From an uncultured bacterium (GTDB taxonomy: Bacteria; Armatimonadota; SYMT01), in NCBI GenBank assembly GCA_964609085.1, contig CAZSRZ010000006.1, positions 12,668-76,667 on the forward strand: 64,000 nt of DNA. The letters run 5' to 3'. Within the stretch, counting starts at the first letter, position 1. Each line of letters begins with the position of its first letter. The notes beneath the pieces were generated by a model that was not told the DNA's origin, searched no databases, and worked only from the letters and a program-made list of their open reading frames with translations. This document shows, one piece after another, positions 38,311 to 56,915 of this stretch. The translations under genes and the position numbers were made by a program.

Positions 38311-38313
38311 CGG

Positions 38314-40715: not shown

Positions 40716-40729
40716 GGGTGCCACGTCGA

Positions 40730-41227
40730 TCAGCGAGCGGGAGTGGCCAGAGCCACCATCTCGGCCAGAGTGAGCGGCTTCGCGTCGGCAAGCAACTCGT
40801 GATTCGCGTGGATCCACTTCTCGAAAGCAGACCGGGTGGTCAACGCTCGGTAGCCGAGCTGGCAGCTTCGGTGGTTCACTTTTTGCCCCACGAAGACGGC
40901 GCCCTCGGGTGAGGCGGTCCACTTGCCGTCCTTGCGCGCAAGGGTCACGGGCTTTCCCTTCAGCTCGGAGGGCGCGAGGATCGTGATGTCGCCCGTGTAG
41001 CTCTTCGAGTCCTGGAGCGCACAGAAAACACAGCGGTACTCGATCCGCTTCCGGCCACTCTTGAGGGCGACCTCATTGTCGAGCCGATCCGTGTCCTGCA
41101 CCACATCCAACTTGCAGACAGGGCACTTCGCCTCGTGAGCCCTGGCCGTATCGAGCCTCGGTCCGGCGACCGCGATCGCCGCCAGTATGCCGGCGATGAT
41201 CCATCGCCGCGAGATTATGGCATGCAT
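40730..41227 (-). CDS. Exported Cys/His metal-binding protein, NosL-like
   Basis: Signal peptide, CPVC..RCVFCA..HRSC..TTRSAF; AGAGGAG ribosome-binding site. Confidence 0.7.
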   Translation of the reverse strand: MHAIISRRWIIAGILAAIAVAGPRLDTARAHEAKCPVCKLDVVQDTDRLDNEVALKSGRKRIEYRCVFCALQDSKSYTGDITILAPSELKGKPVTLARKDGKWTASPEGAVFVGQKVNHRSCQLGYRALTTRSAFEKWIHANHELLADAKPLTLAEMVALATPAR

Positions 41228-41395
41228 TGCAAACTCCTCTGGGCGCCCTTGCGGGGGCGGGGATTGAGTGTCGCCGTCGGCGTCCCGGTTGGGGGACGCA
41301 CGGCATTCATCCGGGTGCCGTTGGGGGACGGGCGGCCGACCGTCACGGACGGATCGACCAGGGCGATCCGCCGGAGGCGGGGTAACTCCGTCCCG

Positions 41396-41872
41396 TTAGT
41401 GGGTGACGGCGGTCGGAGGGGCGCGCGACCGATCAGCGCCGCGCTGGGGCGGTCGCAGAGGCCCGGAAGCCGGCTGAGGCAACCGCAAGCCGCCCGTAGG
41501 CAGGATCAGGAGACGATCCGCGGTAGGCAGCAGGGCCGGGCTTGCCGCGAGGGGCCTCGCCGCCGGTTTGGGCTCCGTGGCCACCGGGGCAGAAGGCGTC
41601 TCGACCGTGCACGTGCACGAGGCCGAGGCCAGTGACCGGCCGGTGTGATGGGTCGGCGAGACGGCCTCGGAGCCGGATCGGCAACAACAGGTCGCTTCGC
41701 CGGACATCCCGCAGGCCCTGGGCGCCTGAGGCTGGGCAGAACTCGCCGCCGTTGCCGTCGGTGCAGTGGAGCTCCCGCAGGCGACCGCCATCCCGGGAAG
41801 GCCAGTGGCGAACGCCACCGCCAGGGCCGTGGGAAGGGCCATCCAGATTCTGTTGCGCCGCAGGAGTTTCAT
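41396..41872 (-). CDS. Cys-rich leader ORF with a C-terminal RAPP motif (DUF2946/CruR-like)
   Basis: An N-terminal hydrophobic helix, ACG..CCC..CTC, and a Pro-rich tail ending SRAPPTAVTH. It is the first gene after the CsoR-boxed promoter. Confidence 0.75.
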   Translation of the reverse strand: MKLLRRNRIWMALPTALAVAFATGLPGMAVACGSSTAPTATAASSAQPQAPRACGMSGEATCCCRSGSEAVSPTHHTGRSLASASCTCTVETPSAPVATEPKPAARPLAASPALLPTADRLLILPTGGLRLPQPASGPLRPPQRGADRSRAPPTAVTH

Positions 41873-41910
41873 GAAGGTTGCGCCTGTCCGTGAACAGGTC
41901 GTTGTCGAGG

Positions 41911-41939
41911 AGTATATACCCCTAGGGGGTAGAGATCAA
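41911..41939 (-). promoter_or_regulatory. Sigma70 promoter with a CsoR-type operator in the spacer
   Basis: Minus strand TTGATC-N17-TATACT; TACCCC-TAG-GGGGTA palindrome at 41917-41931. Confidence 0.8.
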
Positions 41940-41958
41940 CCACCGGCTGATCCCGATT

Positions 41959-44577
41959 TCACATGGACAAGGACCCGGTGGATGCACTGACGTTCCGGTT
42001 GTCGGCGTGGGTTTGTTGGGCAGGGACGTCGCCCGTTCGCGCGGACTGGGACCGAAACCCTCGCAGTCGCAGGCTGTTGGTCACCACCGAGATGCTGGAG
42101 AGAGCCATGGCCGCACTGGCGATGATCGGGGACAGAGTGATGCCGAAGACCGGGTAAAGCGCCCCTGCCGCTATCGGGATGCCCAGGACGTTGTAGAGGA
42201 AGGCGAAGAAGAGATTCTGGCGGATCGTGCGCATCGTGGCCCGTGAGAGCCGGATCGCCGCGACCACGCCCGTCAGTTCGCCGCTCACCAGGGTGATATC
42301 CGACGCTTCCATGGCGACATCGGTGCCTGTTCCGATGGCGATCCCGACATCAGCCTGCGCCAGGGCCGGGGCGTCGTTGATGCCGTCGCCGACCATGCCC
42401 ACCACGTGGCCTGCCTCCTGGAGCATCCGAACCTGTGCCACCTTCTGCTCCGGCAGCACCTCGGCGACGACGCGGTCGACGCCTACCTGCCGGCCGACCG
42501 CCTCAGCGGTGCGCAGATTGTCTCCGGTGACCATAACCACCAGCAGTCCGGCTTCGCGGAGAGCGGCCACCGCCGCGGCTGACCGGGCCTTCACCCGATC
42601 CGCAACGGCGATCACCCCGGCCGCCCGACCGTCCACGGCAGCCAGCATCGGTGTCTTCCCATCTTCGGAGAGCCGGTCCATGCTCTCCAGCAGCGGCGTC
42701 GGGTCGATGCCGCGCTCATCCAACAATCGCCGATTGCCGACGAGCACGGTGCGGCCGTCGACGGTCGCTTCCAGCCCGCGCCCGGTCAGCGAGTTGAAGG
42801 AGGATGCCTGGCTGGGGCTGAGGCCCCGAACCTCGGCGGCCCTGACGATCGCCTCCCCGAGCGGATGCTCCGAGGACTTCTCGGCACCAGCAATCAACCC
42901 CAGGAGTTCCGCCTCGTCCCATCCGTCAGTAGGTATGACATCGGTCAGTTCCGGTCGCCCTTCGGTGATCGTGCCGGTCTTGTCCAGGATCAGGGCGGTG
43001 ATCTTGTGCGCTGTCTCCAGGCTTTCACCCCCACGGATCAAGATGCCGTTTTCGGCACCGCGGCCGGTGCCGACCATCACCGCGGTCGGCGTCGCCAGGC
43101 CCAGAGCGCAGGGGCACGCGATGATGAGCACCGAGACGAAGGCGATCAGAGCCTGCTGAAGCCGCGTTTCCACCGGGGCCAGCGTCATCCAGAGGAAGAA
43201 CGCGACGACGGCGATCCCCAGCACCCCCGGCACAAAGACACCGCTGATGACGTCCGCCAATCTCTGGATCGGAGCCTTGCTGCCCTGAGCCTCCTGCACC
43301 AGCTTGATGATCTGCTGCAGAGCAGTCTCCTTGCCCACCTTCGTCGCTTCGAGCCGGAAGGCGCCGGTTCGGTTAATGGTGGCACCGAAGACCTCATCCC
43401 CCGGGGCCTTCTCCACCGGTAGGCTCTCGCCGGTCAACATCGACTCATCCACCGCGCTCCCGCCGAACCGGACGACCCCGTCCACGGGGATCTTCTCGCC
43501 TGGTCGGACCAGCACCAGATCTCCGGCGGCCACATCCTCGACGGGGATCTCGAGCTCCGCCCCATCACGCAGCACATGGGCGGTCCGCGGTTGGAGCCCG
43601 ATCAGGCGACGAATCGCGTCGCCCGCTCGAGCCTTTGCACCGGCCTCCAGCATCCTGCCGACCAGGATCAAGGCGATGATCACGGCTGCTGCCTCAAAGT
43701 AGACGGGTGCCATTACCGGGCCGTGGCCGCCGCCGTGAGCGTGGGTGGGAACGACGAGCCCGGGAAAGAGGGTCGCGATGACGCTGAAAACGAATGCGGC
43801 CCCGGTGCCCATGGCGATCAGGGTGTTCATGTCCGCCGAGCGGTGCCAGAGGGCACTCCAGGCACCACGGAAAAACGGTGCTCCTGCATAGGCGAGGACG
43901 GGCGTCGTGAGCAACATCTGGACCCAGTGGTTGCCGGGGAAATCCAGGTGCAGCATGGCGAGGACCGTCACAGGCAACCCGAAGACCAGAGCGACCCAGA
44001 AGCGGCGGCGGAGGTCCGCGTACTCTCGCTCACGGGCAACCCGTTCCCAATCCTCATCGCCAACGCCCGCCGCCTCCGCCTCGATGGGCGTGGGCGGTTC
44101 CAGCGCGTGTCCCTCGCTGACGAGGGCCTGCCGTACCGCGTCCGGCTCCGTGAGGCCGGGGAAATACTCGACCACCAGAACCTGGTTGGCCTCGTCAAGG
44201 GCGGCACTCACCACGCCGCGCAGTCGAGCAGCCGTCTCGACAACCCCCGTAGCCTGCTCCGCGCCTGCCGGGGTCAACCGAATCCGAGCCTCAGCCGTAC
44301 CGGCCGTACCATAGCCCGCCCGCCGGATGGCACCGACCAGCAGCCCGGTGTTCGTCTCCGTCGGCTGATAGGCGATCGTCGCCTGGTGGGCAGCGAAGTT
44401 CACCCCGGCCTCGGTCACGCCGGGAGTGCGGCGGAGCACCTTCTCGATACGGGCAGCGCACGCCGCACAACTCATCCCCGTCACTGGAACCGTGATCTGC
44501 TCGTCCGCCGTCCCCTCGGGGCCAGCCGTCGGACCGGATTGGCCCTCGCGGACCACTGACCCCATTGAGCCTGCCAT
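41959..44577 (-). CDS. copA: Cu(I)-translocating P1B-1 ATPase
   Basis: [38 protein letters not shown] and AMALSS; GAGGTG ribosome-binding site before ATG 44577. Confidence 0.95.
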
Positions 44578-44624
44578 CGCACTCACCTCGTCTCCCCTCC
44601 GAGCGCCTGTCGGCCGGATGTCCA

Positions 44625-44686
44625 ATACCCTATGGGGGTATACCAGCGCCAACACTTTTATACCCCCTACGGGTATGACCTGTCAA
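44625..44686 (-). promoter_or_regulatory. copA promoter with two CsoR-type operators
   Basis: Minus strand TTGACA (44686-44681)-N18-TATAAA (44662-44657); ATACCC-N5-GGGTAT at 44625-44641 and 44660-44676. Confidence 0.85.
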
Positions 44687-44720
44687 CCTGGACGGTCCAC
44701 GGTTCCGCTGCCCAGCCGCC

Positions 44721-44960
44721 GCGCCCAACCCCCGACAAACGGGAGCCTCCCCGGGAGCCATCCTGGGTGCGAGGGCGACCCGCCCGCATGGGCCGCGGTG
44801 ACCGCGCCCAACCCCCGACAAACGGGAGCCTCCCCGGGAGCCATCCTGGGTGCGCGGGCGTCCCGCCCGCATGGGCCGCCGTGGCCGAACCCGACCACCG
44901 ACAAACGGGCACATCCCTGGGAGCCATCCTGGGTGCGCGATCATCCCGCCCACATGGGCC
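44721..44960. repeat. Three tandem 83-bp repeats containing a REP-like palindrome
   Basis: CGACAAACGGG at 44733, 44816 and 44899. Each unit contains GGGAGCCATCCTGGGTGCG..CCCGCCC.CATGGGCC. Confidence 0.9.
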
Positions 44961-45005
44961 CGCCCCGTCCGCTGCCGCAACTGCCGTCGCGTACCGGCTG
45001 TGGCT

Positions 45006-47486
45006 CTAGCCCAGGTTCCGCTTCGGGGAGTCGTCCGGCCCGTAGCCGGGAATCGGCACCGGAGGATGTTCGAGATCGAACACCCGTGGCGTGCCCATCT
45101 CAACCATCCGCCTGGCGGCGGCCTCGAGGAGCGACTTGCCGTTGGCGCCGTCCGCAGGGTAGGCAGCCAGGCCGTAAACCACCTGCGACTGCGTCCCCGC
45201 GTGGGAGCGCGTGCGACAGTGGGCCACGATACGATCCGAGATCACCGCCGCGTCGATCTGGTTGCAGCGAGGGAGGACCACCGCAAAGTCGCCGTCAGCG
45301 GTGTGCGCCACAAAATCTCCCTCGCGGAGGGCGTCCCGTAGGTGGGCGGCGAGGCCCGTGCGGCTTCGCCGGAGCGACTCCTCCGTGTGCCGCGAGGTCG
45401 CCGATTCCCCGATCACCAACACGGCGAACTCTTCTTCCCGCGTCTGGGCGATGGTGACCTGCGAGTGAAGGAACTGGAGCAGGTTCACGCAGCTCGGGAG
45501 GCCCGTGACCGGATCGTTGACGAAGGCCCGAGACTGCGCCTCCAGGACGAGGGCATACGGGTCGGACTGCGATAGGAACTGGGCCAGGAGCTGCAATCGG
45601 TCACCGTGTAGCTCCCGGTAGACACTGTAGCTGCTGTGGTAGGCCGCAAGCACGCCGAGGGTCTTGCCCCCGACAACAATGGGCGCGGCGAGCGCGCTGC
45701 TGAGCTCCAGGTTCTCGCCCGGCCGGACGCGGCGGGAGAGGTCCATCCCCGCAGCGACATTGATGACGGACCTGCCGGTGGTCGCTACATACCCGCTCAT
45801 GCCTTCCCCGAGGTGAATCTCCAGCCCGTCGAAGAGCTCACGCCAGTCGCCTTCCACGCTGATCGGGGTGAGCGTCCGCCGCTCCTGGTTCACAACATAG
45901 AGCACGAGCGTCGAGAAGGGAATGTGCGGCTTGATGGCGTCCACCAGATCAGCGGACAGCATCGGGGCGCCTCGGGATGCGATGGGGAGGGCATTCAATT
46001 CCTGAAGGAATTCCTCCTCGGACAGGGGTTGGTCCAGTTGGGCCACTTGCAGACTCGCAACCCGCTGGGCGAGGATTTCCACCACCGAGGGCTTCTCCGC
46101 CGGCGCATCCTGGGCGAGTTGCTCGATGGCGGCATCCATCTCCGGCAGGGACTTGATGAAGATCTTGGTCAGCTCCGGGTCGAATTGTGTGCCGGCGTTG
46201 GCGCGGATCATGTCTAGCGCTTGTTCCTGCCTGACGGCCCGTCGGTACGGCCGGTCCGAGGTAAGGGCGTCGTACATGTCGACCAGCGACAGGATGCGGG
46301 CCCCGAGCGGAATCTGCTCCCCGCACAGGCCGTCCGGATACCCGAGCCCGTCCCAGCGCTCGTGATGTCCCCGGACGATTGGCACCACGGGCCAGGGGAA
46401 GTCGACCTGCTCGAGGATCGCCACCCCCATGGCCACGTGTGACTTGATGATCTCGAACTCCGACGCCGACAGCTTGCCGCGCTTCAATAGGATCTGCTCG
46501 GGGATGCCGATCTTCCCGATGTCGTGTAGGAGCGCCGCCGCCCGGATCGCTTCCAGGTCTCCACCGGTGATGCCCAGGCGCGTGGCAACTCCCACCGCGT
46601 ACTCGCGCACGCGGTTCACGTGCTTGTGCGTGTGGGGGTCCTTCGTCTCGATGGCCATCGCCAGGCTGGCGATCATCGCCTCGTTGAGGCGATTGACCGT
46701 GCCCATGTGCTCCATGTCGGCCTTCAGCTTCTGGCTGCGGACGTTGAATGAGTAGTAGATGATGTAGCTGAGCGGCGCCAGGATTAGGATGGCGATGCCG
46801 GGTAGTTGAAAGGGGAGCCAGCTCGTCACACAGACGACCACGGCACCGATAGAGGCGCTGGCGGCAAACCCCGGCCAGGCCCAGGCGAAGTATTCGCGGA
46901 AGGTGGCCCAGGCCTGGCGCTCTTGCGACCACGCCATGGCCACGGACATGCCGATGGCGTTCACCACGTAGAATGCCATCGGCGGTGCCGCCAGGGCTCC
47001 CCAGTTCAGGTTCTGCACCTGCAGCGGAAACTCGCCACGGAGGAGGTGGTGCACCGCGGCCATCGCCCCGATGCCCAGGATCAGGTTGGAGAGGTTGTAG
47101 AGTGCCTGGTAAGTGAGAGACTTACGAATCTGGATGTGCCAGCCTTGCTCCCCATGTCGGAGCGAAACGCCGCCGATCACACCGAAGAGGCTCACCAGCA
47201 CCGCAGCCGAAGGGCCGAGGATGAGGAACGTGTAGTAGGTGACCGTGAAGGTGAGGGTGATACAAGCCTTGCCGGCGCTCGGGTCGACGCGTGCGGCACC
47301 AGCCACCAGCCCGGCGAAGCAGAGCAACCCCAGCATTCCCCAGTCGGCAACGGGGAACGTGCTCTCCAGCCAGAAGGTCACCCCGATGGCACAGCATGCC
47401 TGGATAAGGATCCAGGCGCGAAGCTTCCTCGCCAGACGGTCAAACCGCATGGCGCCTGGGTTCCGTATGCTGCCGAGAAACTTCAT
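45006..47486 (-). CDS. Membrane-bound HD-GYP phosphodiesterase with GAF and degenerate GGDEF domains
   Basis: About 6-7 N-terminal transmembrane helices; KDPHT, LLHDIGK, HHERWDGLGYP and DMYDAL..RPY; a GAF domain (GEGMSGYVA); GGDEF replaced by ADGDF. Confidence 0.9.
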   Translation of the reverse strand: MKFLGSIRNPGAMRFDRLARKLRAWILIQACCAIGVTFWLESTFPVADWGMLGLLCFAGLVAGAARVDPSAGKACITLTFTVTYYTFLILGPSAAVLVSLFGVIGGVSLRHGEQGWHIQIRKSLTYQALYNLSNLILGIGAMAAVHHLLRGEFPLQVQNLNWGALAAPPMAFYVVNAIGMSVAMAWSQERQAWATFREYFAWAWPGFAASASIGAVVVCVTSWLPFQLPGIAILILAPLSYIIYYSFNVRSQKLKADMEHMGTVNRLNEAMIASLAMAIETKDPHTHKHVNRVREYAVGVATRLGITGGDLEAIRAAALLHDIGKIGIPEQILLKRGKLSASEFEIIKSHVAMGVAILEQVDFPWPVVPIVRGHHERWDGLGYPDGLCGEQIPLGARILSLVDMYDALTSDRPYRRAVRQEQALDMIRANAGTQFDPELTKIFIKSLPEMDAAIEQLAQDAPAEKPSVVEILAQRVASLQVAQLDQPLSEEEFLQELNALPIASRGAPMLSADLVDAIKPHIPFSTLVLYVVNQERRTLTPISVEGDWRELFDGLEIHLGEGMSGYVATTGRSVINVAAGMDLSRRVRPGENLELSSALAAPIVVGGKTLGVLAAYHSSYSVYRELHGDRLQLLAQFLSQSDPYALVLEAQSRAFVNDPVTGLPSCVNLLQFLHSQVTIAQTREEEFAVLVIGESATSRHTEESLRRSRTGLAAHLRDALREGDFVAHTADGDFAVVLPRCNQIDAAVISDRIVAHCRTRSHAGTQSQVVYGLAAYPADGANGKSLLEAAARRMVEMGTPRVFDLEHPPVPIPGYGPDDSPKRNLG

Positions 47487-47814
47487 GGGGCGATCGGCTC
47501 CCCGGACTAACGGGAGCCGTGAGAGAGAGCGTAGGACGCTTGCCTGTGCGTCCGTTGTTCCCCTGCTTTAGCCCGCGATTCCTGCGTCCGGGTCCCATCG
47601 CATCCCCCACACACCTGGCCAGCAAGGCATCGGATGGAAGTGTCGCAAGAAAAACCCAACATCCAAGGGGCTGCGCGGGGAGGAGCGCCACGGTATTTGG
47701 GAGTAGTCTCACTTACTGCTTCACGTGGCCCGTTTGCAGACGGCTCCACGTGGGAACAGAGAGTCAGGGCTGGAGAGGTCGGGGCGCCCCAACTCCCGTA
47801 CAGGAGGGCACCCC

Positions 47815-47910
47815 ATGGAATACGATCTGGTCCTCGAGATCGAAGAGCTCGAGGAGCGAACTGCCCCCGCCTTCATCTGGCTTCCCCCGGATGAGGGTGT
47901 CGGCCCCTAA
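47815..47910 (+). CDS. 31-aa putative precursor peptide MEYDLVLEIEELEERTAPAFIWLPPDEGVGP
   Basis: AGGAGG 7 nt before ATG 47815 and a TAA ending at 47910. The acidic leader ends EELEERTAP. It lies directly upstream of an RRE-peptidase fusion. Confidence 0.8.
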   Translation: MEYDLVLEIEELEERTAPAFIWLPPDEGVGP

Positions 47911-48162
47911 GTCAACCAAGTCAGCGATCAACACCCATCTCGCGAGATAGCTCCTGTTGCAGCAGTTGCTCCCCCGCGGACGACAACGGGAAGGCCGTGA
48001 GGTAGAGGCCGGCACATGCCGGCCGCAAGCCCCACGGTTAACCCCCGAAACCAACAGACATTCTGGCGCCCAAAGTCGACCTCTCCAGTCCCTTTTTTCC
48101 CTGCACCGTTGATGATCCGTTGTCTCCCGATTGGCTGAACCAGCCGCTTTCGGCAGACATGA

Positions 48163-50961
48163 TTGGGGTCTGCAAGAACCGTGCCAATCGCCACGCTGCG
48201 GGCGGCCGGCCAGGACCGCGTGCCCACGATGCCGTTCACGGAAGCTGACGCTCCCCAGCGACGCGCCCAGGTCGTGTTGCGTCCCTTTCTGGAGCCCGGA
48301 CGGGTGCAGGTGCTGGATCATGCCTCGGGTCGCCGATTCGGCGTGGGCGAAATCGAGGCCCACATCCTGAAGTCCCTGGACGGCATGACGACGCTCGGCC
48401 AGATCGCGGCCTCGATTCCGCGTGAGTTCCCCGGCGTGCGCGGATCGGTGGAAACCGTCGTGCGGTTTGCCGACCGACTTGAGGCTCTCGGTCTTCTCGA
48501 AGGATCCACCGCGCAGCGGGGATCCCGACGGCGGATCCCGCTGTTCCGACGCCTCGCAAAAGTGATGTCGCCTCCCATTCCCGCGGAGGGGCTCTACCGG
48601 TTGCTTCTGCCGCTCGTGCGTCTGGCTTATCGGCCCTGGGTGCTGGTGGTCTTGCTGATCGCGGTCGTGTGGGCCGGCTACGAATCGTTCTTCGACCGCG
48701 TCGCCTTGCTGGACTACGCTCACCTGTTCCAGCGAGGGACCGGCCTCCTCGCCGTCGTCGCCGGGATTGCCCTCATCGGCCTGATTCACGAACTCGGCCA
48801 CGGGCTGACGTGCCGTTACTTCGGGGCACCCAGCCGCGGGATCGGCTGCTTTTTCATCTACGGCATTCCGCTGTTTTACTGCGACGTGAGTGGCGCCTAC
48901 GATCTGAGCTCGCGCAGCCAGCGCATCGCCATCGACGCGGCGGGGCTCGGCTGGCAGCTCACCGCCGGCGCCGTTGCCTATCTCGGCTGGCGGGCCCTGG
49001 AGCCCGGTTCGTTCCCTGCGCTCATCTGCCAGGTGATGCTAGGGACCTGCGGCGCGATGTCGCTGATGAACCTGAACCCATTCATCCGGATGGACGGCTA
49101 CTATCTGTTGAGTGACTTCTGGAGCATCGCGAACCTGCGGGAGAAGTCGATCGGCTTTTTCCAATGGAAGATGGCTGCGATCCTCTGCGGGTCGCCCTCG
49201 CCGCGGGCTCGGTCGAGCCGCGAAGCGCGCATCTTCTTCTGGTTTGGGCTCCTGTCATCCCTCTACACCACTCTGCTGGTGTCGCTCTTGCTCTACTTCG
49301 TTTCTCGGTGGATGCTGTCACACTGGCACGGCACCGGGGCGGTTGTGTTGGGGTTCATGCTGATGAGCATCGCTGTCTCCTGGGCCAGGTCCACCGTGGC
49401 GCGCAGCCTCGCGCAGAGCAGCTCCGCGGGAGCGTCACCCACACCGCCGACTCCGCCCGAGGCCGGGACGGCGCCGCGGTCCTCTGCCGGGCCACGGCCG
49501 CAGGCGGCCGTGTCACCCGAGGGGCCGCCGCCATGGAAGCTGCCGCGCGCCCGCTTCACGCTGCTCTTCGTGATCCTCGCCATAGTCTGGTTCTGGAATG
49601 CGAAGTGGCACTTTTTCATCGCCAGCCCCTGCACGCTGGAGGCCTGGGAGCGAGTACCGGTCCGCCCGGCCGTGGAAGGCGTGCTGCGGAGCGTTCCCTT
49701 CAGCGAGGGGGACGTGGTGCGCCGGGGGGAGCTTCTCGGCGTCCTGGAATCGGCGGATCTCTCCAGCGCGCGGACCCAGGCCCGACAGAAGGCGCAAGCC
49801 GTCCAGGCCGTGGGGGACGCGATGGAGTTGGAAGCCCCCGTCACCCGATTGGAGAAGGAGCAGGCGATCATGTCCGCTCGGCAAGAGGTGCGGGCAGCGA
49901 GGGCGGATCTCGACAACATGCTGAGCGAGTTCCCGGCTCGTCTCGCCGAGGCCGATCGGCAGTTGAGCGAGGCCGGCAAGGCGGTCGATGCCGCGGAGTT
50001 GGTCGCGAAACGTCTCCGGGTGGATGAACGCGCCATGGCCGACGGCAACCTGCCACCGAACATGCAGGCCATCGCCGAGCGCATCCAACGTGTGGACGCT
50101 CAGCGGCGGCTGGCCGCGACGGATCTCCGGCGTACCGAAATCCTCGTGGGCGAGGGTGCGCTGCAGCGCCAGAAGTTGGACTCCGCGCAGGCGGATCTAG
50201 AGCAGTTGAGCCGTGATCGCGCCGCGCTGGAGAGTGAGCTGCGACAGGAGATGAAGGCCCTCCGAGAACGGCGGGAGGATGCGGAGGCCGAGGTGGAAGC
50301 GCGGCTGGCGGCCCGGCGAACCGCGGAAGAGACGCTGGAGCGGGTGCGACGGGAGACGCGCAACCAGAAGCTGGACGCCCAACGCGACGAAGTGCGAGCC
50401 CGCGAAGACCTTCTCGCCGCATCCATCAGCCTCCGGGCCGCGGCGGACATCAAGCGGGCCCAGGCACAGGCGAAGCGGCTGGAAGCTCGCCCTCTCGTGA
50501 CGGAGATCGGTCGGTTGGATCGGAAAATCCGAGAGACTCGGGTGTTGGCGCCCGCGTCCGGGATCATCAGCACACCCCGCCTCCGGGAGCGCGAAGGCAA
50601 GAAGTTCAACACCGGCGAGACGATTGCCTGGATTGACGAGGTGGATCGCCTGCGGGCTCGCGTCTTCGTGGACGAGAAGGAGATCGGCTTCGTGCACCTG
50701 GGGCAGGTGGTCCAGGTGAAGGTCGGGGCCTTCCCGGACCGGCTGTTTGAGGGCACGGTGCTGGAACAGGCCACGCGCGCTTCGGACAGGGGCGGGAAAC
50801 CCAGCTACGAGGTGATTCTGCGGATCCAGAACTCCGACCGCACGCTCCGCCCGGGGATCACCGGCTACGCCAAGGTGATCGTCGGCGATCGCCCGCTGCG
50901 CGAGGTCGTCTTCCGCAAGCTCATTCGCTACTTCCGGACCGAGGTCTGGACTTGGTTCTGA
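48163..50961 (+). CDS. Fusion of a PqqD/RRE-like domain, a site-2 (M50) intramembrane metalloprotease and a HlyD-family adaptor
   Basis: ILKSLDGMTTLGQIA...RLEALGLLEG (winged-helix RRE-like); IHELGHG (HExxH) and NLNPFIRMDGYY; VRPAVEGVL..EGDVV, a coiled coil, VLAPASGII and VDEKEI. Confidence 0.88.
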   Translation: MGSARTVPIATLRAAGQDRVPTMPFTEADAPQRRAQVVLRPFLEPGRVQVLDHASGRRFGVGEIEAHILKSLDGMTTLGQIAASIPREFPGVRGSVETVVRFADRLEALGLLEGSTAQRGSRRRIPLFRRLAKVMSPPIPAEGLYRLLLPLVRLAYRPWVLVVLLIAVVWAGYESFFDRVALLDYAHLFQRGTGLLAVVAGIALIGLIHELGHGLTCRYFGAPSRGIGCFFIYGIPLFYCDVSGAYDLSSRSQRIAIDAAGLGWQLTAGAVAYLGWRALEPGSFPALICQVMLGTCGAMSLMNLNPFIRMDGYYLLSDFWSIANLREKSIGFFQWKMAAILCGSPSPRARSSREARIFFWFGLLSSLYTTLLVSLLLYFVSRWMLSHWHGTGAVVLGFMLMSIAVSWARSTVARSLAQSSSAGASPTPPTPPEAGTAPRSSAGPRPQAAVSPEGPPPWKLPRARFTLLFVILAIVWFWNAKWHFFIASPCTLEAWERVPVRPAVEGVLRSVPFSEGDVVRRGELLGVLESADLSSARTQARQKAQAVQAVGDAMELEAPVTRLEKEQAIMSARQEVRAARADLDNMLSEFPARLAEADRQLSEAGKAVDAAELVAKRLRVDERAMADGNLPPNMQAIAERIQRVDAQRRLAATDLRRTEILVGEGALQRQKLDSAQADLEQLSRDRAALESELRQEMKALRERREDAEAEVEARLAARRTAEETLERVRRETRNQKLDAQRDEVRAREDLLAASISLRAAADIKRAQAQAKRLEARPLVTEIGRLDRKIRETRVLAPASGIISTPRLREREGKKFNTGETIAWIDEVDRLRARVFVDEKEIGFVHLGQVVQVKVGAFPDRLFEGTVLEQATRASDRGGKPSYEVILRIQNSDRTLRPGITGYAKVIVGDRPLREVVFRKLIRYFRTEVWTWF

Positions 50962-51587
50962 ATCGGGCCCCATTCGTCATCGGCATCGCGGGCGGTACCG
51001 GATCGGGAAAGACGACCGTCGTTACGGCTCTCATCGAGGCTGTCGGGGAGCAGCGGGTCGTCCGGCTGGAGCAGGACTCTTACTACCGCCATCGTGCCGA
51101 GCTGACCCCGGCCGCTCGCGCGGCCCTGAACTACGATCACCCGGATGCCCTGGATCTCGACCTCCTCGCCCACCATCTCCGCGAGTTGCGATCGGGACGC
51201 CCGGTGGAGACCCCCACTTACGACTTCCGCACACACCTGCGGAAAGCAACGGGCCGGAGGCTGGAGCCGCGGGCCTGCGTCGTGGTCGAGGGGATCCTGG
51301 TGCTCGGCAGCGCGGAACTCCGTGCGCAGATGGACCTGCGGCTCTACGTCGAGACCGACGCCGACATCCGCTTCATCCGGCGCCTTCGCCGAGACACCAT
51401 CGAGCGCGGCCGGACCGTAGAGAGCGTGATTGAGCAGTGGGAGCGGGCTGTCCGCCCCATGCACCTCGAATACGTCGAACCGAGCCGGCGGCACGCCCAC
51501 CTTATTGTCCCGGAAAGCGGAGGCCCAGAGGCGTTGGAGGTTCTGCTTAGTCGCGTCCGCGCCGTGCTGGGGTTGAAAGCCGGCTAG
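50952..51587 (+). CDS. udk: Uridine kinase
   Basis: GIAGGTGSGKTT, QDSYY, NYDHPDA, EGIL and RRLRRD..ERGR. Confidence 0.95.
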   Translation: MVLNRAPFVIGIAGGTGSGKTTVVTALIEAVGEQRVVRLEQDSYYRHRAELTPAARAALNYDHPDALDLDLLAHHLRELRSGRPVETPTYDFRTHLRKATGRRLEPRACVVVEGILVLGSAELRAQMDLRLYVETDADIRFIRRLRRDTIERGRTVESVIEQWERAVRPMHLEYVEPSRRHAHLIVPESGGPEALEVLLSRVRAVLGLKAG

Positions 51588-53707
51588 CCTAGACCTACCG
51601 ACCGGGCTACCCAGAAGGCCAGGGTGGCGCCGCCCCACGCCAGCCCGGTCATGTAAACCCACGCGAAGGCCGGCCATTTCCAGCTACCCGTCTCACGTCG
51701 CATGACGGCCAGGGTCGAGACGCACTGCATGGCGAGGACGTAGAACACCATCAAGCCGATCGCCGAGGCGGTTGAGAAGAGCGGCTGGCCCGTCCGCGGA
51801 TCGACCTCCGCCCGCATCCGTTGTCGCACGCTGACAGCCTGCCGGTCGTCGTCGTCCTCCACGCTATAGACGATGGCCATGGTGCCGACGAAAACCTCGC
51901 GTGCCGCGAACGACCCAAGGATGCCGATTCCCACCTTCCAGTCCATGCCGAAGGTGCTGAGCGCCGGCTCGAGGGCCTTCCCCGCGATTCCGGCGATGCT
52001 CTGCTCCAGTCGCTCGTGTGAGGGCATGGAGGGAGATCCGGGGTAGCGCATCGCCGCCCATAGCAGCACACTGATGCACAGAATCACGGTGCCCGCGCGG
52101 CTCACGAACTCGGACGCTCGCTCATAGGTCTGGGTCAGGACGGTGCGGATACCCGGCACCTTGTATGGCGGCAGCTCCATCAGGAAGAGCTGGGCGTCCC
52201 CCTTGAAAAGGGTGCGCTTCAGCACCGACGCCACGAGCAGGGCCGTGGTCAGCCCGAGCAGGTAGAGCCCCACCAGAACCAGCGCCGGCAGCGAGACCAC
52301 CATCCACAGGCGTCTGTCCGGGATGAATCCCGCGATGAGCAAGGTGTAGACTGGCAAGCGAGCGCTGCAGCTCATCAGCGGCGCCACCAGGATTGTCACC
52401 ATCCGGTCGCGCCGGTCTTCGATGGTGCGGGTAGAGAGGATGCCCGGGATGGCGCAGGCGAAGGAGCTGAGCAGTGGGATGAAGCTCTTGCCGTGCAGAC
52501 CCACTCTCGACATTACCCGGTCCATCACGAAGGCGGCGCGAGCCATGTAGCCCGAGTCCTCGAGCAGTCCGATGAAGAGGAAGAGAAAGGTGATTTGCGG
52601 CAGGAAGATGATCACACCGCCGACGCCGCCGATGACGCCATCGACAATCAGGCTCCGAAGGTCCCCCGGCGGCAGGAGGCCGCCCACCCACCCGCCGAGG
52701 GCACCCTGGGCGGACTCAATCCAGCTCATCGGCGTGCTGGACCAGGTGAACACGCCCTGCAGCATCAGGAGCATGAGGGCCAGGAAGAGGATGATGCCGC
52801 CGACTCGGTGAGTCGCGATGCGGTCGATGCGTTCCGACCAGGTGACTCTTGGCGGAGCATGCTCCACCACCTCCATCAGCATCTGGCGTATCCAGTCGTA
52901 GCGGGCTTCCACCGGCGCAGCCAATGGATCGAGACCCTCTGATCGCAGTCGCGCCTCCGCTGATTCCACGAGGAACAGCACGCTCGGCTGGTCCGCCAGG
53001 AGGGCGAGGCGAGCTTCCGGGGAGAGCGTGATGAGCTGGAGCGCGTGAAACAGCGCCAGAGGCGCCGAGGCGTAGCCGACGTTCCGCAAGCCTTCGGCCA
53101 GCTCCGTCAGTGTCGACCGGAGTGGTCCTTCCGCGAGCCAATCCGGCGGCTGGACGGGCAGCGGTGGCTTCGCGAGCAACTCGCGTAACGCGGGGATCCC
53201 CTCGCCACGAGTGGCGACCATTGGCACAACCGGAATTCCGAGTCGCTGCGAAAGCCGATCGGCGTCGACGCGAATCCCCATCCGGGCTGCCACGTCAACC
53301 ATGTTCAGGCAGAGGATCACCGGCAGTCCCAGATCAAGGATCTGGCCGGCCAAATAGAGGTTTCGGTCCAGGTTGCTGGCGTCGACGACGACCAGCACCA
53401 CCTCCGGCCGCGGTGGGAAACCACCCAGCAGCACGTCCCGCGCAATCCGCTCATCGGGAGAGCGCACAGAGAGCGAGTAGCATCCCGGCAGGTCGATGAC
53501 CATCGCGCCGGTTTCGGCGAGTCGGCCCTCACGACGCTCGACGGTGACGCCGGCGTAGTTGCCCACCCGGTGACGCAATCCCGTGAGCGCGTTGAACAGC
53601 GTTGTTTTGCCGCAGTTTGGGTTGCCCCCGAGGGCAATCACCCCTGGCGCTGCGGCCGCCGGCCGCGTCGCCTCGGAGGTGGCTCCGACTTCCTGAGGCG
53701 CGGACAC
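51584..53707 (-). CDS. feoB: Ferrous iron transporter B
   Basis: GNPNCGKTT, GNYAGVT, DLPG, LNMVD, EDSGYMAR, FACAIPG and MSCSARLP. Confidence 0.97.
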   Translation of the reverse strand: MSAPQEVGATSEATRPAAAAPGVIALGGNPNCGKTTLFNALTGLRHRVGNYAGVTVERREGRLAETGAMVIDLPGCYSLSVRSPDERIARDVLLGGFPPRPEVVLVVVDASNLDRNLYLAGQILDLGLPVILCLNMVDVAARMGIRVDADRLSQRLGIPVVPMVATRGEGIPALRELLAKPPLPVQPPDWLAEGPLRSTLTELAEGLRNVGYASAPLALFHALQLITLSPEARLALLADQPSVLFLVESAEARLRSEGLDPLAAPVEARYDWIRQMLMEVVEHAPPRVTWSERIDRIATHRVGGIILFLALMLLMLQGVFTWSSTPMSWIESAQGALGGWVGGLLPPGDLRSLIVDGVIGGVGGVIIFLPQITFLFLFIGLLEDSGYMARAAFVMDRVMSRVGLHGKSFIPLLSSFACAIPGILSTRTIEDRRDRMVTILVAPLMSCSARLPVYTLLIAGFIPDRRLWMVVSLPALVLVGLYLLGLTTALLVASVLKRTLFKGDAQLFLMELPPYKVPGIRTVLTQTYERASEFVSRAGTVILCISVLLWAAMRYPGSPSMPSHERLEQSIAGIAGKALEPALSTFGMDWKVGIGILGSFAAREVFVGTMAIVYSVEDDDDRQAVSVRQRMRAEVDPRTGQPLFSTASAIGLMVFYVLAMQCVSTLAVMRRETGSWKWPAFAWVYMTGLAWGGATLAFWVARSVGLG

Positions 53708-53709
53708 CG

Positions 53710-53946
53710 TCAGATCAGCGCGTCGAGGATCACCCCGGCGGCATCCCCGCGGCGCAAGGTCAGGCTGTGTCCGCGCACGCGAATCTCAATCGGGTCACCC
53801 AGCGGGGCGGCACGGATGAACCGGACGGGCGCGCCGCGGATTAGACCCATCTCCTGGAGCCGCACACGGATGTCCACGGCTCCGTCCACGCGCAGGATTC
53901 GGCCCTCTTCACCGGGGGTCAACGAACAGAGGCTTCGTTCGGACAT
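53710..53946 (-). CDS. feoA: FeoA family protein
   Basis: RLQEMGL..G..APLGDPI.I.VRG..L.LRR. Confidence 0.93.
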   Translation of the reverse strand: MSERSLCSLTPGEEGRILRVDGAVDIRVRLQEMGLIRGAPVRFIRAAPLGDPIEIRVRGHSLTLRRGDAAGVILDALI

Positions 53947-53977
53947 GGGGTGTGCGGCGACGGGACAATCGGGCAGG

Positions 53978-54235
53978 CTAGACAGGCTCGACAACGATCT
54001 GTTGTGCCAGGTGGCCGCTCAGGCCGATGCGGCTCTGGTGCACCAGACAGACGCAGGACGGGCCGCCCTGCAGGCAGCGGATGACGGCATTCTCGCAAAA
54101 GCCAAGCTCACGTAGGCGGTGGCACACGTCTGGCTGGCCTTCCAGCCGCCTCACGCGCACCGCGCTTCCGGGTCGCACCGCATTCAACGTCGTCATTCGC
54201 TTGCTCTGCCCTCGCCGATCCGATGGGTCGGCCAT
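53978..54235 (-). CDS. feoA: Second FeoA family protein
   Basis: LNAVRPG..RLRELGFCENA..SRIGLS..LA; the start is ATG 54235 or 54196. Confidence 0.85.
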   Translation of the reverse strand: MADPSDRRGQSKRMTTLNAVRPGSAVRVRRLEGQPDVCHRLRELGFCENAVIRCLQGGPSCVCLVHQSRIGLSGHLAQQIVVEPV

Positions 54236-54242
54236 CTGCCTA

Positions 54243-54271
54243 ACTATAGCGTGCCCGAAAGAACGGGGCAA
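54243..54271 (-). promoter_or_regulatory. Putative sigma70 promoter for the feo operon, possibly leaderless
   Basis: Minus strand TTGCCC-N17-TATAGT; ATG 54235 begins 7 nt after the -10 hexamer. Confidence 0.55.
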
Positions 54272-54289
54272 CCACAGCGGGCATTGAGA

Positions 54290-54305
54290 TTTAGTCGAGG
54301 CTAAA
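54290..54305. promoter_or_regulatory. DtxR/MntR-family operator-like palindrome
   Basis: TTTAG-TCGAGG-CTAAA between the divergent feoA and ppk1 genes. Confidence 0.6.
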
Positions 54306-54465
54306 CGCCCGGCGCGGACGCCGCTTCCCGCGTTGGAAGTGTTGGCGTCGGACGGAGACCGGCTTTCGGGGCGGCAGACCTCCGGGCCCGTCGTCCGGAC
54401 GCTCCCCCGGGGACGGGCCCCATCCGCCTCAATCGAAGCTGACACGAAACAGTGCCGTCCCTATC

Positions 54466-56883
54466 ATGATCCTCAAGCCCCTCCCGCGCGAGACATCAGT
54501 TATGCTCCTCGGCACCCCCGACGCCCCGGCCGACCCGCCCGGTAGTTCCAGTTCCGAACTGGCCGACCCGGCTCTCTACATCAACCGTGAACTCTCCTGG
54601 TTGGAGTTCAATCAGCGTGTGCTGGAGGAGGCCCTGGAAAAGGGTGCGCCTCCGCTCGAGCGACTGAAGTTCCTCGCCATCGTCTCGTCGAACCTGGACG
54701 AGTTCTTCATGGTGCGAGTCGCGGGGCTTCGGCGACAGATCCGCCTGGACGCAGTGACGCTTGCCGCCGACCTGATGGCCCCCGCCGACCAGTTGAAGGC
54801 CATCATGACCCGCTGCCACCAGATGGTGCAGGACCTGTACCGGTGTCTCCGGCGATCGGTCCTGCCGGCCCTGGCGGAACACGGCATCCGCATCCTTCCC
54901 GTGGAGGAGCTGAATAAGGAAGATGCCCGCTGGGCAAACGACTACTTCCACCGCCAGGTGTTCCCGGTCTTGACCCCACTGGCGCTCGACCCTGCACACC
55001 CCTTCCCGCACCTCCGCAATCGGAGCATCAATCTGATGGTGACACTCCGAAAGGGGAGGGGGCACCGCACCCCGCTCTATTTCGCGGTGGTGCAAGTGCC
55101 GGGAGTGTTGCCGAGGATCCTCCGGTTGCCGGGTGAGGGCGCCCGCTTCGTCTTGCTGGAAGATCTGATCAACCACCACATCTCGGAGCTGTTCCAGGGC
55201 CTGTCGGTGGTCGACTGCTACGCGTTCCGCATCACCCGGGATAGCGATCTCGACTTCGATGAGGATGAGGCGGAGGACCTGCTCGAGGCTATCCAGGAGG
55301 AGGTTCGTCGCCGTGACTGGGGGGTCACCGTCCGCCTGGAGGTATCGGGAACCGTGGGCGAACGTGCACAGCAGGAGTTGCTGGGAGCGCTGGGGATCAC
55401 CGCGGCGGAAGTCTACTGCGTCGACGGGCCGCTGAACTTGCCGGACTTCTTTGCCATCCAGCGCCTGCCGGAGTATCCGCACCTGCGCGACGAGCCCTAC
55501 GTCCCGCCTGTCCCCCGCCGACTTCAGGGCAAGAAGGACCTCTTCGCTGAGATTCGCGCCGGGGACATACTCCTGCATCACCCCTACGAGTCCTTTTCGC
55601 CCGTGGTTGAGTTCTTGCGGCAGGCGGCGGAAGACCCGGATGTGTTGGCGATTAAGATGACGCTCTACCGCACGAGCGGCAACTCTCCGCTGGTGGCAGC
55701 GTTGGCGCGGGCTGCCCAGAACCGGAAGCAGGTGACCGCAGTCATCGAGCTCAAGGCCCGCTTCGACGAGGAGAACAACATCGTGTGGGCGCGCTCTCTG
55801 GAGCGGGCCGGTGTGCACGTGGTCTACGGGCTGGTCGGCCTGAAGACCCATTGCAAGCTACTCATGGTCGTCCGGCGGGAGCATGGCGAAGACCGGCTGC
55901 GTCGCTATGTCCACCTGGGCACCGGGAACTACAACGCCGACACCGCCCGGCTTTACACGGATCTCGGCATCCTCACCTCTTCCCTTAAAGTGGGGCAGGA
56001 TGTTTCCCGGCTGTTCAATGTCCTGACGGGATTCTCGGAGTTTCCAGTCTGGCGGCGGCTGGCAGTGGCGCCGGTGGGCTTGCGGGCGCGCTTCCTCGAG
56101 TTAATCAAGCGGGAAGCCGACCATGCGCGGGCGGGGCGGCCGGCGCAGATCATTGCGCAGATGAACAGCCTGACGGACCCTGAGATTCTCCGCGCACTGT
56201 ATCAGGCCTCGCAGGCAGGAGTGAACATCCTGCTGATCATCCGCGGCATCTGCTGCCTGCGGCCGGGGATCCCCGGCGTCAGTGAGCGGATAGAGGTGCT
56301 GAGCATCGTCGGGCGATTCCTTGAGCACTGCCGCATTTTCTATTTCCGCAACGGGGACAAGGAGCTCTGCGGACCCGAGGCAGAGGTCTACCTTGCCAGT
56401 GCGGACTGGATGAATCGAAATCTCTCGCGCCGGGTGGAGATTGTGTTTCCCGTCGAGGATCCCGAGCTGCGCCGCCGCGTGGTGGAGGAGATACTGCTGG
56501 TCCGGGCGAGGGACACCAGCGCTGCGCGGCGGCTGAACCGGGACGGCAGCTACACCCGCGTCCGCGCCAAGCGCGGAGAGCGGCAGGACAGCCAGGCATG
56601 GTTTATGGCACGGGCCCTGGGCGAAAACGCTCCGGACGCGGAGAGGCCCTACGGTGCCGACCTGCTGCTGCACGACCCCGGCAACGCTCGACCGCCGCGC
56701 CCCCTCGAGGAGGACATGCTCGACGAGCAGTTCAGTTCGAAATCTGGCCTGGCCGGCGACGGCGAGCCAGGGCAGTACACTCCGCCCTACGCTGACGAGA
56801 CCGTGAGTCTTGCCGACGACTCCTGGGACGATGTGGGTTTCGCGTCGCCCCCGGCCGAACTGCCGTCCCGAACCAAGCCGTAA
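54466..56883 (+). CDS. ppk1: Polyphosphate kinase 1
   Basis: NRELSWLEFNQRVL, LDEFFMVRVAGL, LLHHPYESF, LKARFDE, KTHCK and GRFLEH. Confidence 0.97.
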   Translation: MILKPLPRETSVMLLGTPDAPADPPGSSSSELADPALYINRELSWLEFNQRVLEEALEKGAPPLERLKFLAIVSSNLDEFFMVRVAGLRRQIRLDAVTLAADLMAPADQLKAIMTRCHQMVQDLYRCLRRSVLPALAEHGIRILPVEELNKEDARWANDYFHRQVFPVLTPLALDPAHPFPHLRNRSINLMVTLRKGRGHRTPLYFAVVQVPGVLPRILRLPGEGARFVLLEDLINHHISELFQGLSVVDCYAFRITRDSDLDFDEDEAEDLLEAIQEEVRRRDWGVTVRLEVSGTVGERAQQELLGALGITAAEVYCVDGPLNLPDFFAIQRLPEYPHLRDEPYVPPVPRRLQGKKDLFAEIRAGDILLHHPYESFSPVVEFLRQAAEDPDVLAIKMTLYRTSGNSPLVAALARAAQNRKQVTAVIELKARFDEENNIVWARSLERAGVHVVYGLVGLKTHCKLLMVVRREHGEDRLRRYVHLGTGNYNADTARLYTDLGILTSSLKVGQDVSRLFNVLTGFSEFPVWRRLAVAPVGLRARFLELIKREADHARAGRPAQIIAQMNSLTDPEILRALYQASQAGVNILLIIRGICCLRPGIPGVSERIEVLSIVGRFLEHCRIFYFRNGDKELCGPEAEVYLASADWMNRNLSRRVEIVFPVEDPELRRRVVEEILLVRARDTSAARRLNRDGSYTRVRAKRGERQDSQAWFMARALGENAPDAERPYGADLLLHDPGNARPPRPLEEDMLDEQFSSKSGLAGDGEPGQYTPPYADETVSLADDSWDDVGFASPPAELPSRTKP

Positions 56884-56915
56884 CCGGCGAAGCCGACCGG
56901 GGAAAGGAGCGGGAG

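Follow-up and report, generated by a model that had tools for sequence, protein, structure and literature searches.

The closest described relatives of the system presented here are the daptides, peptides made by the ribosome and modified after translation (RiPPs) whose class was found through a RiPP recognition element (RRE) fused to an intramembrane site-2 protease. According to the daptide papers, leaders of these peptides carry the motif ELExMEAP, mature daptides are cut right after ELExxxxx, motifs of this type were experimentally shown to be the recognition sequence of RRE and protease, and Met(-4) of the leader is essential for the RRE of MpaB. The invariant C-terminal Thr is converted by DapB, DapC, DapD and DapM to an amine terminus, and daptides are membrane-active or antimicrobial. 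We analyzed a stretch of 64 000 nt (the window) from an uncultured bacterium of the Armatimonadota lineage SYMT01 (assembly GCA_964609085.1, contig CAZSRZ010000006.1, positions 12 668 to 76 667) with a focus on a gene of 31 codons located upstream of a gene for a three-part fusion protein. The small gene exists, it is conserved at the amino acid level, it is transcribed as a short, apparently abundant RNA, and it is genomically coupled to genes of fusions of an RRE, an M50 protease and an adaptor. The best reading overall, which we consider probable, is that its product is an RRE-guided substrate, likely to be unmodified, cut after Ala-Pro and exported; a signalling role is the likeliest but tentative. 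What is new is a daptide-type logic of leader, RRE and site-2 protease that comes without tailoring chemistry and with the protease fused to an export adaptor.

As in the daptide systems (precursor MpaA/DapA, protease MpaP/DapP), a predicted RRE is fused N-terminally to the M50 protease, several precursors per locus are often found, and the precursor is short, with a leader ending ELExxxAP. A sequence-only reading of this DNA had pointed to the daptide leaders, and ELEERTAP of the window peptide is in register with the published ELExMEAP (E, L, E, A and P are shared), so that by analogy cleavage is expected after Pro18. Other features set the two systems apart. Arg takes the place of Met(-4) in the window peptide, which ends in ...GVGP with no C-terminal Thr; among the 108 family cores listed only one ends in Thr. 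While daptides are aliphatic helices, the cores are acidic, Trp-containing and hexapeptide-like here, and rich in Gly, Asn and Pro in relatives from soil. The window protease is fused to an EmrA/HlyD-type adaptor of ∼450 aa. Daptides are known from cultured Actinomycetota or Bacillota, the present family from Armatimonadota-like or uncultured soil lineages. There are no DapB/C/D/M tailoring genes and no DapT-type ATP-binding cassette (ABC) exporter: the flanking genes of the window code for an HD-GYP/GAF/GGDEF protein, uridine kinase, FeoB and a Cu-ATPase, and none of DapB (DUF-RRE), DapC (oxidative decarboxylase), DapD (aminotransferase), DapM (methyltransferase) and the ABC exporter is conserved in nine related loci. 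With the C-terminal Thr and the tailoring genes missing, the system is not a daptide system but a relative of it; as no tailoring enzyme is conserved nearby, the product is probably unmodified or only trimmed.

The 31-codon frame is very probably a real gene, and we infer that it is translated. Its features (Table 1) agree with those named by the sequence-only reading, i.e. an AGGAGG ribosome-binding site, an acidic leader and a Pro/Gly core without Cys, Ser or Thr. The leader, residues 1-18, has seven acidic residues and one basic; the tail of 13 residues has three Pro and two Gly and is free of Cys, Ser and Thr. It is also true, as that reading stated, that the list of open reading frames (ORFs) gives the 31-aa frame only as the end of a 61-aa ORF starting at GTG 47725. 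We rejected the 61-aa frame as a real gene: its N-terminal extension is not conserved, and in the related locus L001 a stop codon, just 5′ of the homologous Met, falls inside the would-be extension. The RNA contig described below begins at the GTG, which is thus at its extreme 5′ end; this also argues against the longer frame. No NCBIfam model matched the 31-aa or the 61-aa frame even at E-value 10, and a search of Pfam and NCBIfam with the peptide and seven of its relatives recognized no family.

To assess conservation we used the contigs encoding nine homologues of the fusion protein and inspected the DNA 5′ of each fusion gene. In eight of the nine loci we observed a homologous small ORF in the same position upstream of the orthologous fusion gene. 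The encoded peptides (Table 1) share one design, LxLE[IV]EELE[ED]RxxP followed by xx[IV]W and acidic residues; the residues L7, E8, E10, E11, L12, E13, R15 and P18 are invariant in the peptide alignments A2 and A3. Pairwise comparison of 12 leader codons across ten loci gave 219 synonymous versus 89 non-synonymous differences, with variable columns at codon positions 1, 2 and 3 making 9, 6 and 17 of 18; two of the ten loci came from a codon-degenerate pattern, which introduces a bias, and eight were reached via the neighbouring protein. Such synonymous-dominated change is the signature of a translated sequence under selection. Past Ala-Pro, conservation is limited to the first four to six residues (MAVWDD, FSIWDE, NAIWGD, HIIWEP, NAIWED and others), and the tails beyond vary. 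Several peptides stop right after the xx[IV]W-acidic part; longer tails, including LPPDEGVGP of the window peptide, therefore look dispensable. A profile scan of genome contigs with the fusion alignment returned only two metagenome-assembled genomes (MAGs), both already found by other searches.

Transcription of the locus was seen in an index of public runs, where the sludge metatranscriptome X2 contains it. A single RNA contig (Table 1) is the sole piece of X2 matching positions 38000-57999 (20 kb), the flanking genes not being assembled; this is evidence of RNA, not of protein. The contig has its 5′ end ∼90 nt ahead of the ATG, where the base of a stem-loop lies, and it stops directly 5′ of a run of six T (48093-48098) that has no adjacent stem. 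In the soil metatranscriptome X5 there were four small contigs sharing with the window only 30-40 nt of leader-coding sequence. At least two of these continue into ...TAPMAVWDD-stop and ...APNLIWGD-stop, indicating that relatives are transcribed too.

The downstream protein is an RRE, then an M50 site-2 protease, then a periplasmic adaptor. Its longest frame starts with TTG 48163, while the database protein P0001 starts six codons later; an alignment of 11 homologues favours ATG 48229, in which case the spacer after the precursor gene is 318 nt. Twelve full-length homologues (33-53% identity) align end to end (alignment A1), with HExxH (H203, E204, H207) and NxxPxxxxDG (N297, P300, D305, G306), the motifs of M50 membership, invariant across all of them. 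Among NCBIfam models the best match, over the N-terminal 410 residues, was NF041824, the daptide biosynthesis intramembrane metalloprotease (E-value 1e-47). Pfam gave HlyD_D23 and HlyD_3 above cutoff in the C-terminal third and a weak Peptidase_M50 match (E-value 4e-4) around residues 199-274; PqqD matches were found in homologues of the fusion. The C-terminus scored 102.8 bits against TIGR01730, the model of adaptors of resistance-nodulation-division (RND) pumps (cutoff 94.9). A profile search of PDB started from A1 matched the C-terminal half to EmrA (E-value 4e-14), MacA and HlyD, and residues 23-94, weakly, to TbiB1, the leader-binding protein (RRE) of a lasso peptide. In the AlphaFold2 model (mean pLDDT, the predicted local confidence score, of 75) the N-terminus has the three strands and three helices of the RRE/PqqD fold; a helical membrane domain with the HExxH helix and a β-hairpin follows, then a disordered linker, one transmembrane (TM) helix and an adaptor with very long α-hairpins and a β-barrel. 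The best Foldseek match was EmrA (2e-16), a result dominated by the adaptor half and uninformative on protease and RRE.

The C-terminal half of the fusion thus has the TM anchor, lipoyl domain, long α-hairpin and β-barrel of membrane-fusion (periplasmic) adaptors, and resembles HlyD, EmrA (4tko), MacA and bacteriocin accessory proteins. Known adaptors of this kind are separate proteins paired with an ABC, RND or major facilitator superfamily (MFS) pump, whereas here the adaptor is fused to the protease with no pump in the locus. The M50 proteases of epipeptides, YydH and LiaK, are likewise RiPP-dedicated membrane proteases with HExxH. Compared with DapP, they are far more distant: the match to NF058609 was weak (E-value 3e-5; 1e-10 for the soil relatives), a radical-SAM (S-adenosylmethionine) epimerase partner is missing, and the precursor is of another type. 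For the RRE-M50 half, a search at E-value ≤1e-10 gave 5773 relatives, counted as clusters at 50% identity; about 107 of the best 150 are at least 680 aa long with the match within the first ∼400 residues. By length alone, fusion would be the common architecture among RRE-M50 relatives. Fusion relatives bear the JGI label 'putative peptide zinc metalloprotease'.

The leader also led to a much wider family. A degenerate DNA pattern for LE[IV]EELE[ED]RxxP alone, with no use of the protease, was run on a metagenome collection and matched at least 154 ORFs in at least 120 contigs. Among the matches listed, the most frequent leaders, LEVEELEERIAP and LEIEELEERIAP, account for 129 of 148 complete ORFs, and there are 111 distinct sequences after the Pro; we took 108 of these as cores (median of 32 residues; Gly 24%, Asn 16%, Pro 14%). 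Precursor genes are often arranged in tandem, two to four at a time. Short cores occur as well, such as GGYIGGGS, AMGSVGGH, GIIISI, NALWGD and QIIIEPED. We then used three RRE-M50 queries in a tblastn search against the 120 leader contigs. An RRE-M50 homologue was present on 47 of the 120 listed contigs, never on the strand opposite to the precursors: in 44 it follows the last precursor at a distance of 115-1316 nt, and in the remaining three it is upstream. Most leader contigs with no RRE-M50 gene do not have the length to show one; of all listed contigs whose downstream sequence extends for 1.5 kb or more, 19 carry it. Fusions from soil are ∼750-770 aa long and match NF041824 with 224-238 bits (E-values 2e-66 to 2e-70), below its cutoff, as well as HlyD models.

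A profile built from 26 peptides found 1789 protein clusters at a lenient E-value ≤10 in a collection of 5.8 billion proteins. The best 120 of them (E-value <6e-9, 46-120 aa) have no Pfam domain; one has an Actinomycetota MAG label, and the names, where given, are 'hypothetical protein', except for one JGI label DUF1192. A literature search on the leader string and on the combination of RRE, site-2 protease and HlyD returned only the daptide paper and no description of the family. The small gene of the window therefore opens onto a very large peptide family recorded publicly only as hypothetical proteins, and its leader provides a simple DNA or protein signature for mining. General features of RiPP precursors are present: a conserved leader, a hypervariable core, a short ORF, and clustering with a leader protease and an RRE protein. 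Post-translational modification, which the definition of RiPPs also demands, is not indicated for the window peptide. For the RiPP field, RRE-guided site-2 proteolysis would be extended to apparently unmodified peptides.

The soil-type precursors (L012-L131, e.g. L057, L067, L109) have Gly/Asn/Pro-rich cores of ∼30 residues, in some of which a sequence is repeated internally (GYEGQPGNQGNG, for example), and commonly end in His, Pro or Asn; two to four tandem genes lie 5′ of fusions of ∼760 aa. No tailoring enzymes, ABC exporters or immunity genes were conserved in the soil-type loci, where neighbours are heterogeneous.

In the mechanism that we propose, the acidic leader LVLEIEELEERTAP would be bound by the cytoplasmic PqqD-like RRE domain of the downstream protein. 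The M50 domain, a sister of DapP, would then cut right after the Ala-Pro ending ELExxxAP and release the C-terminal tail, with xx[IV]W and the acidic residues as the conserved business end of the freed peptide. The fused EmrA/HlyD-type adaptor may link the release of the peptide to its export; a TolC-like outer-membrane channel is the probable route, and a transporter whose gene lies elsewhere may take part. The product would be an unmodified or merely trimmed short peptide, and the likeliest role in this lineage, being the weakest step of the scheme, is that of a secreted signal tied to turnover of cyclic di-GMP (c-di-GMP) rather than of an antibiotic. Taken one by one, RRE-guided cleavage after Ala-Pro is quite likely by analogy to daptides, adaptor-mediated export has about an even chance, and the signalling role, suggested by gene adjacency, is tentative.

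With respect to export, the window contains a neighbourhood of copper/silver resistance type at 27656-35742 and 41959-44655, which codes for OEP (TolC-like), an AcrB/CusA-type RND pump, a P-type ATPase for heavy metals and an HlyD_D23 adaptor that also has a YtkA domain. These genes indicate that the organism has tripartite efflux machinery, and the TolC-type OEP of the Cus-like RND cluster that an outer-membrane partner for the adaptor exists in the organism.

In the sequence-only reading the peptide was a minimal substrate of the neighbouring peptidase that left little room for classic RiPP tailoring. This proposal fits all comparative evidence and is, overall, partly supported: the substrate claim gained from the nearness of the downstream protein to the daptide leader protease, and the claim on tailoring from the lack of a conserved tailoring enzyme nearby. 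That reading had missed the N-terminal RRE, which would explain leader recognition, as well as the HD-GYP/GAF/GGDEF neighbour and the very large size of the family.

Several observations weigh against the substrate reading with its signalling role. The Pfam PqqD match of the fusion is weak (E-value 0.25, residues 51-112), and the NF041824 match, covering positions 4-370 of 379, reached 163 bits against a cutoff of 300; the window protease is thus a relative and not an equivalog. L011 has the fusion, but a recognizable precursor was seen neither in the 150 bp upstream of it nor on the rest of the 7.5 kb of that locus. Of the 42 listed contigs whose downstream sequence spans 1.5 kb or more, 23 have no RRE-M50 gene in the vicinity, so that processing by a neighbour is not universal in the family. 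There is no ATPase or other energized transporter in the locus that would drive export by the fusion of protease and adaptor. RNA contigs carry no strand, and contig depth, being only indicative, is a poor measure of expression. No HD-GYP neighbour was seen on the sequence covered in L010 and L011, and signalling genes are common, so that adjacency is only suggestive.

The evidence for signalling comes from the neighbouring genes. The same HD-GYP/GAF/GGDEF neighbour that is divergent to the window gene was found in L001-L005, L008, L009 and L107. On the contig of P0012, the most distant full-length homologue (34%), an HD-GYP/GAF/GGDEF gene follows on the same strand, with two small genes in between. 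In L046, L081 and L095 a 29-30% identical HD_5-GAF-GGDEF protein is encoded directly downstream of a precursor ending in ...EELEERSAPGIIISI or GIIIGL; the precursor there (L081 5184-12136, L095 7639-13740, L046) is placed between an Opp-type SBP_bac_5 gene and the HD_5-GAF-GGDEF gene, with ABC permeases following. No RRE-M50 gene was found in L081 and L095 (about 5-11 kb on each side) or in L046 (1-2 kb). Other short-core members adjoin GAF-PAS histidine kinases and Ser/Thr-kinase-TPR proteins, and soil loci often include two-component genes. The conservation of the HD-GYP/GAF/GGDEF neighbour in two gene orders makes a signal role tied to c-di-GMP the most likely one. For the signalling field, the linkage to HD-GYP/GAF/GGDEF proteins, GAF histidine kinases and Opp presents a candidate for peptide-to-c-di-GMP signalling in poorly known diderm phyla.

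In Firmicutes, M50 proteases of the Eep/RseP type liberate short C-terminal peptide signals that are re-imported by Opp and sensed by cytoplasmic receptors. As in those systems, the peptide gene of L081 and L095 adjoins an Opp-type binding protein, a permease and a sensor enzyme. Eep, unlike the window protease, has no RRE or fused adaptor; its substrates are signal-peptide-like or short hydrophobic peptides (SHP) with no acidic leader, and the signals are received by RRNPP regulators instead of c-di-GMP enzymes.

The precursor genes are flanked by a locus-specific, RNA-like hairpin motif. Its stems of 4-11 bp covary fully, and its hexaloop is conserved as UUGCCG, with UUGCAG in the two copies of the window. 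A census counted 14 hairpins versus 0.1 expected from shuffles, with one on the reverse strand. The hairpins lie on the precursor strand both 5′ and 3′ of the precursor ORF, with no further plus-strand copies in those loci; the motif is absent from the soil-type loci and is not in Rfam. Rfam gave no match in the locus or in the whole window, and scans for terminators and tRNA genes found none.

In five distinct relatives there is an extra ORF of seven codons between the precursor and the fusion gene. The products, MLVVWDD, MHVIWDD (twice), MFLIWDE and MHVIWDE, mimic what would remain of the precursor after cleavage, xx[IV]W[DE][DE]. The start of the ORF either overlaps the precursor stop (TAATG) or is preceded by GAGGA or AGGAG; ...WDD-TGATG was also read from one soil metatranscriptome contig. 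Three loci share the 20 nt ATGCACGTAATCTGGGACGA without any difference, although their leader codons differ, so there may be nucleotide-level constraint too. We searched for RNA complementarity to the 7-codon ORF and found none. The ORF is absent from the window, L001 and L010; positions 47680-47706 of the window read in frame ...RHGIWE-stop with no start codon.

One could speculate that all these elements belong to an unknown diderm peptide-signalling circuit, in which RRE-guided intramembrane proteolysis and export by the protease-fused adaptor would be followed by sensing by the HD-GYP/GAF/GGDEF protein, directly or after Opp uptake, thus setting c-di-GMP. The leaderless 7-codon genes of the relatives (MHVIWDD, MLVVWDD, MFLIWDE) may then encode the mature signal directly, and the private UUGCCG-loop hairpin may control the precursor mRNA in the relatives. 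In this complete form the proposal is unlikely to hold.

The product of the neighbouring protease-exporter could as well be an antimicrobial or competitive, bacteriocin-like peptide instead of a signal, which we consider rather unlikely. Most characterized systems combining a leader peptide, a protease and HlyD-type export make bacteriocins. Together with the activity of daptides, this would fit a bacteriocin-like product, as would the hypervariable cores and multiple tandem precursors of the family. The conserved core of the window's clade, on the other hand, is acidic, of ∼6 residues and with one Trp, unlike the cationic amphipathic bacteriocins; the surroundings contain no conserved gene for immunity or an ABC protein, and the conserved neighbour is a c-di-GMP enzyme.

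Could the ORF be a cis-regulatory device controlling the fusion gene and not a substrate, acting either as a small RNA or through an attenuator or upstream peptide? Its position 250-320 nt 5′ of the fusion gene and in the same orientation, the short and structured transcript that ends before that gene, the conserved hairpins flanking the ORF and the 7-codon ORF of the relatives in the same spacer would all be expected of such a device. Conservation at the amino acid level with synonymous change left free would not, nor would one leader on more than 100 different cores, often in two to four tandem genes, a pattern typical of precursors and not of attenuators. In addition, the leader matches the motif established by experiment in daptides, and some family members have no fusion gene downstream. 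We regard a regulatory device as quite improbable.

The chances are equally slim that the peptide is a daptide proper, or the precursor of some other heavily modified RiPP, with its tailoring enzymes encoded elsewhere in the genome. The affinity of the protease to DapP and the leader register speak for it. So does a pair of genes just beyond the fusion gene of L005 (8072-10116), coding for an alcohol dehydrogenase that depends on Fe and for a SAM methyltransferase, families used in actinobacterial daptide clusters; the pair was seen in no other related locus, and the last residue of the L005 precursor is Glu instead of Thr. As described above, the Thr that daptides require is replaced by Pro in the window and is nearly absent from the cores listed, DapB/C/D/M homologues neither flank the window gene nor are conserved across the nine loci, and the core has no Cys, Ser or Thr. 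Finally, a chance ORF that happens to follow AGGAGG has a negligible probability: the window has 66% GC and abundant spurious ORFs in all frames, among which we count an antisense ORF of 345 aa (47764-48801) overlapping the peptide gene, but conservation, the pattern of synonymous substitutions, the discrete transcript and hundreds of homologues refute it.

Two further analogies had been drawn by the sequence-only reading. The resemblance to pearlin scaffolds is real at the sequence level: AmmA (...EVESKIAPLALA) and BhaA (...EIEDKVAPLALA) have an acidic leader ending E[IV]E[DS]K[VI]AP and a short hydrophobic tail (...EEIEDKVAPLALA, ...DEVESKIAPLALA), to be compared with LEIEELEERTAPAFIW of the window; the likeness is that of a short motif only. 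In pearlin scaffolds the Trp is appended, while in the window peptide it is genetically encoded. No ligase of the peptide aminoacyl-tRNA ligase (PEARL, LanB-like) type, flavoenzyme or other pearlin enzyme was seen in the flanking proteins or the 23 window ORFs scanned, several of the ∼48 large ORFs being outside that scan. The analogy to the LEPR-XLL motif of giant exported proteins gained no support, with no NCBIfam match at E-values up to 10 and a product of 31 aa.

Table 1. Features of the precursor locus in the window and in related loci (positions are those of the window unless a locus is named)
Feature	Position	Strand	Remarks
Precursor peptide gene	47815..47910	+	31 codons and stop, MEYDLVLEIEELEERTAPAFIWLPPDEGVGP; ATG 47815, TAA 47908-47910
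Shine-Dalgarno AGGAGG	47802..47807	+	7 nt before ATG 47815; sequence read directly
Leader, residues 1-18, ending ELEERTAP	47815..47868	+	proposed RRE-binding/protease-recognition part; predicted cleavage after Pro18
Core or follower, residues 19-31, AFIWLPPDEGVGP	47869..47907	+	conserved part: first 4-6 residues, xx[IV]W and acidic
RNA contig, 369 nt	47724..48092	.	metatranscriptome X2; 100% identical, depth 16
Stem-loop, loop UUGCAG (core 47730-47743), at transcript 5′ end	47724..47750	+	RNA fold; variant of UUGCCG motif
Second small hairpin, UUGCAG loop, ∼40 nt past stop codon	47949..47970	+	fold and reading by eye; weaker than in relatives
Strong GC-rich hairpin, 3′ part of short transcript	47993..48039	+	folds, z about -2.3; not a canonical intrinsic terminator
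Three-part fusion gene, 932 aa in longest frame	48163..50961	+	probable start ATG 48229 by homologue alignment
Fusion: RRE/PqqD-like domain	about 48253-48495	+	
Fusion: M50 site-2 protease	about 48568-49410	+	HELGH 48787-48801
Fusion: disordered linker, then TM anchor	TM about 49540-49599	+	
Fusion: EmrA/MacA/HlyD-type periplasmic adaptor	about 49603-50958	+	
Divergent neighbour, 826 aa	45006..47486	-	multi-TM N-terminus, HD-GYP (HD_5), GAF, GGDEF (Pfam); candidate partner/receiver
Precursor, L001			MYELILEVEELEERAVPAFIWYDEDTENPVPPTPPTNGG
Precursor, L002			MADQPVEELVLEIEELEERTAPMAVWDD
Precursor, L003/4			MAELHLDELTLEIEELEDRTAPNAIWEDAPPATVVPGP
Precursor, L005			MDERYEEVSLEVEELEERTAPFSIWDE
Precursor, L008			MTERNEELVLEVEELEDRIAPQIIIEPED
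Precursor, L009			MKNHPEELILEVEELEERTTPHIIWEP
Precursor, L010			MTTPQELEELTLEIEELEERTAPNAIWGD
UUGCCG hairpins, L001	4428-4455, 4714-4735, 4849-4864		
UUGCCG hairpin, L002	4652-4669		
UUGCCG hairpins, L003	4349-4362, 4649-4664, 4719-4740		
UUGCCG hairpins, L005	4493-4506, 4542-4559		
UUGCCG hairpins, L008	3650-3665, 3735-3750		
UUGCCG hairpins, L009	2092-2105, 2167-2182		
UUGCCG hairpin, L107	863-880		
7-codon ORF, L002	4612-4635		
7-codon ORF, L003	4609-4632		same as L004
7-codon ORF, L005	4422-4445		
7-codon ORF, L008	3609-3632		same as L131
7-codon ORF, L009	2045-2068		

Some other features of the window were recorded on the way. A perfect direct repeat of 2077 bp occupies positions 4370-6446 and 6533-8609, the copies being 86 bp apart; each copy carries minus-strand ORFs of 489 and 162 aa with no Pfam match, and the repeat reflects either tandem duplication in the very recent past or an artefact of the assembly. 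A tandem repeat at 44719-44960, with a unit of 83 bp in 2.9 copies (89% matches), is located in the stretch that separates the Cu-ATPase gene from the 3′ end of the HD-GYP/GGDEF gene. A gene of the Pup-ligase family (PafA/Dop type) at positions 2557-4107 suggests a pupylation system.

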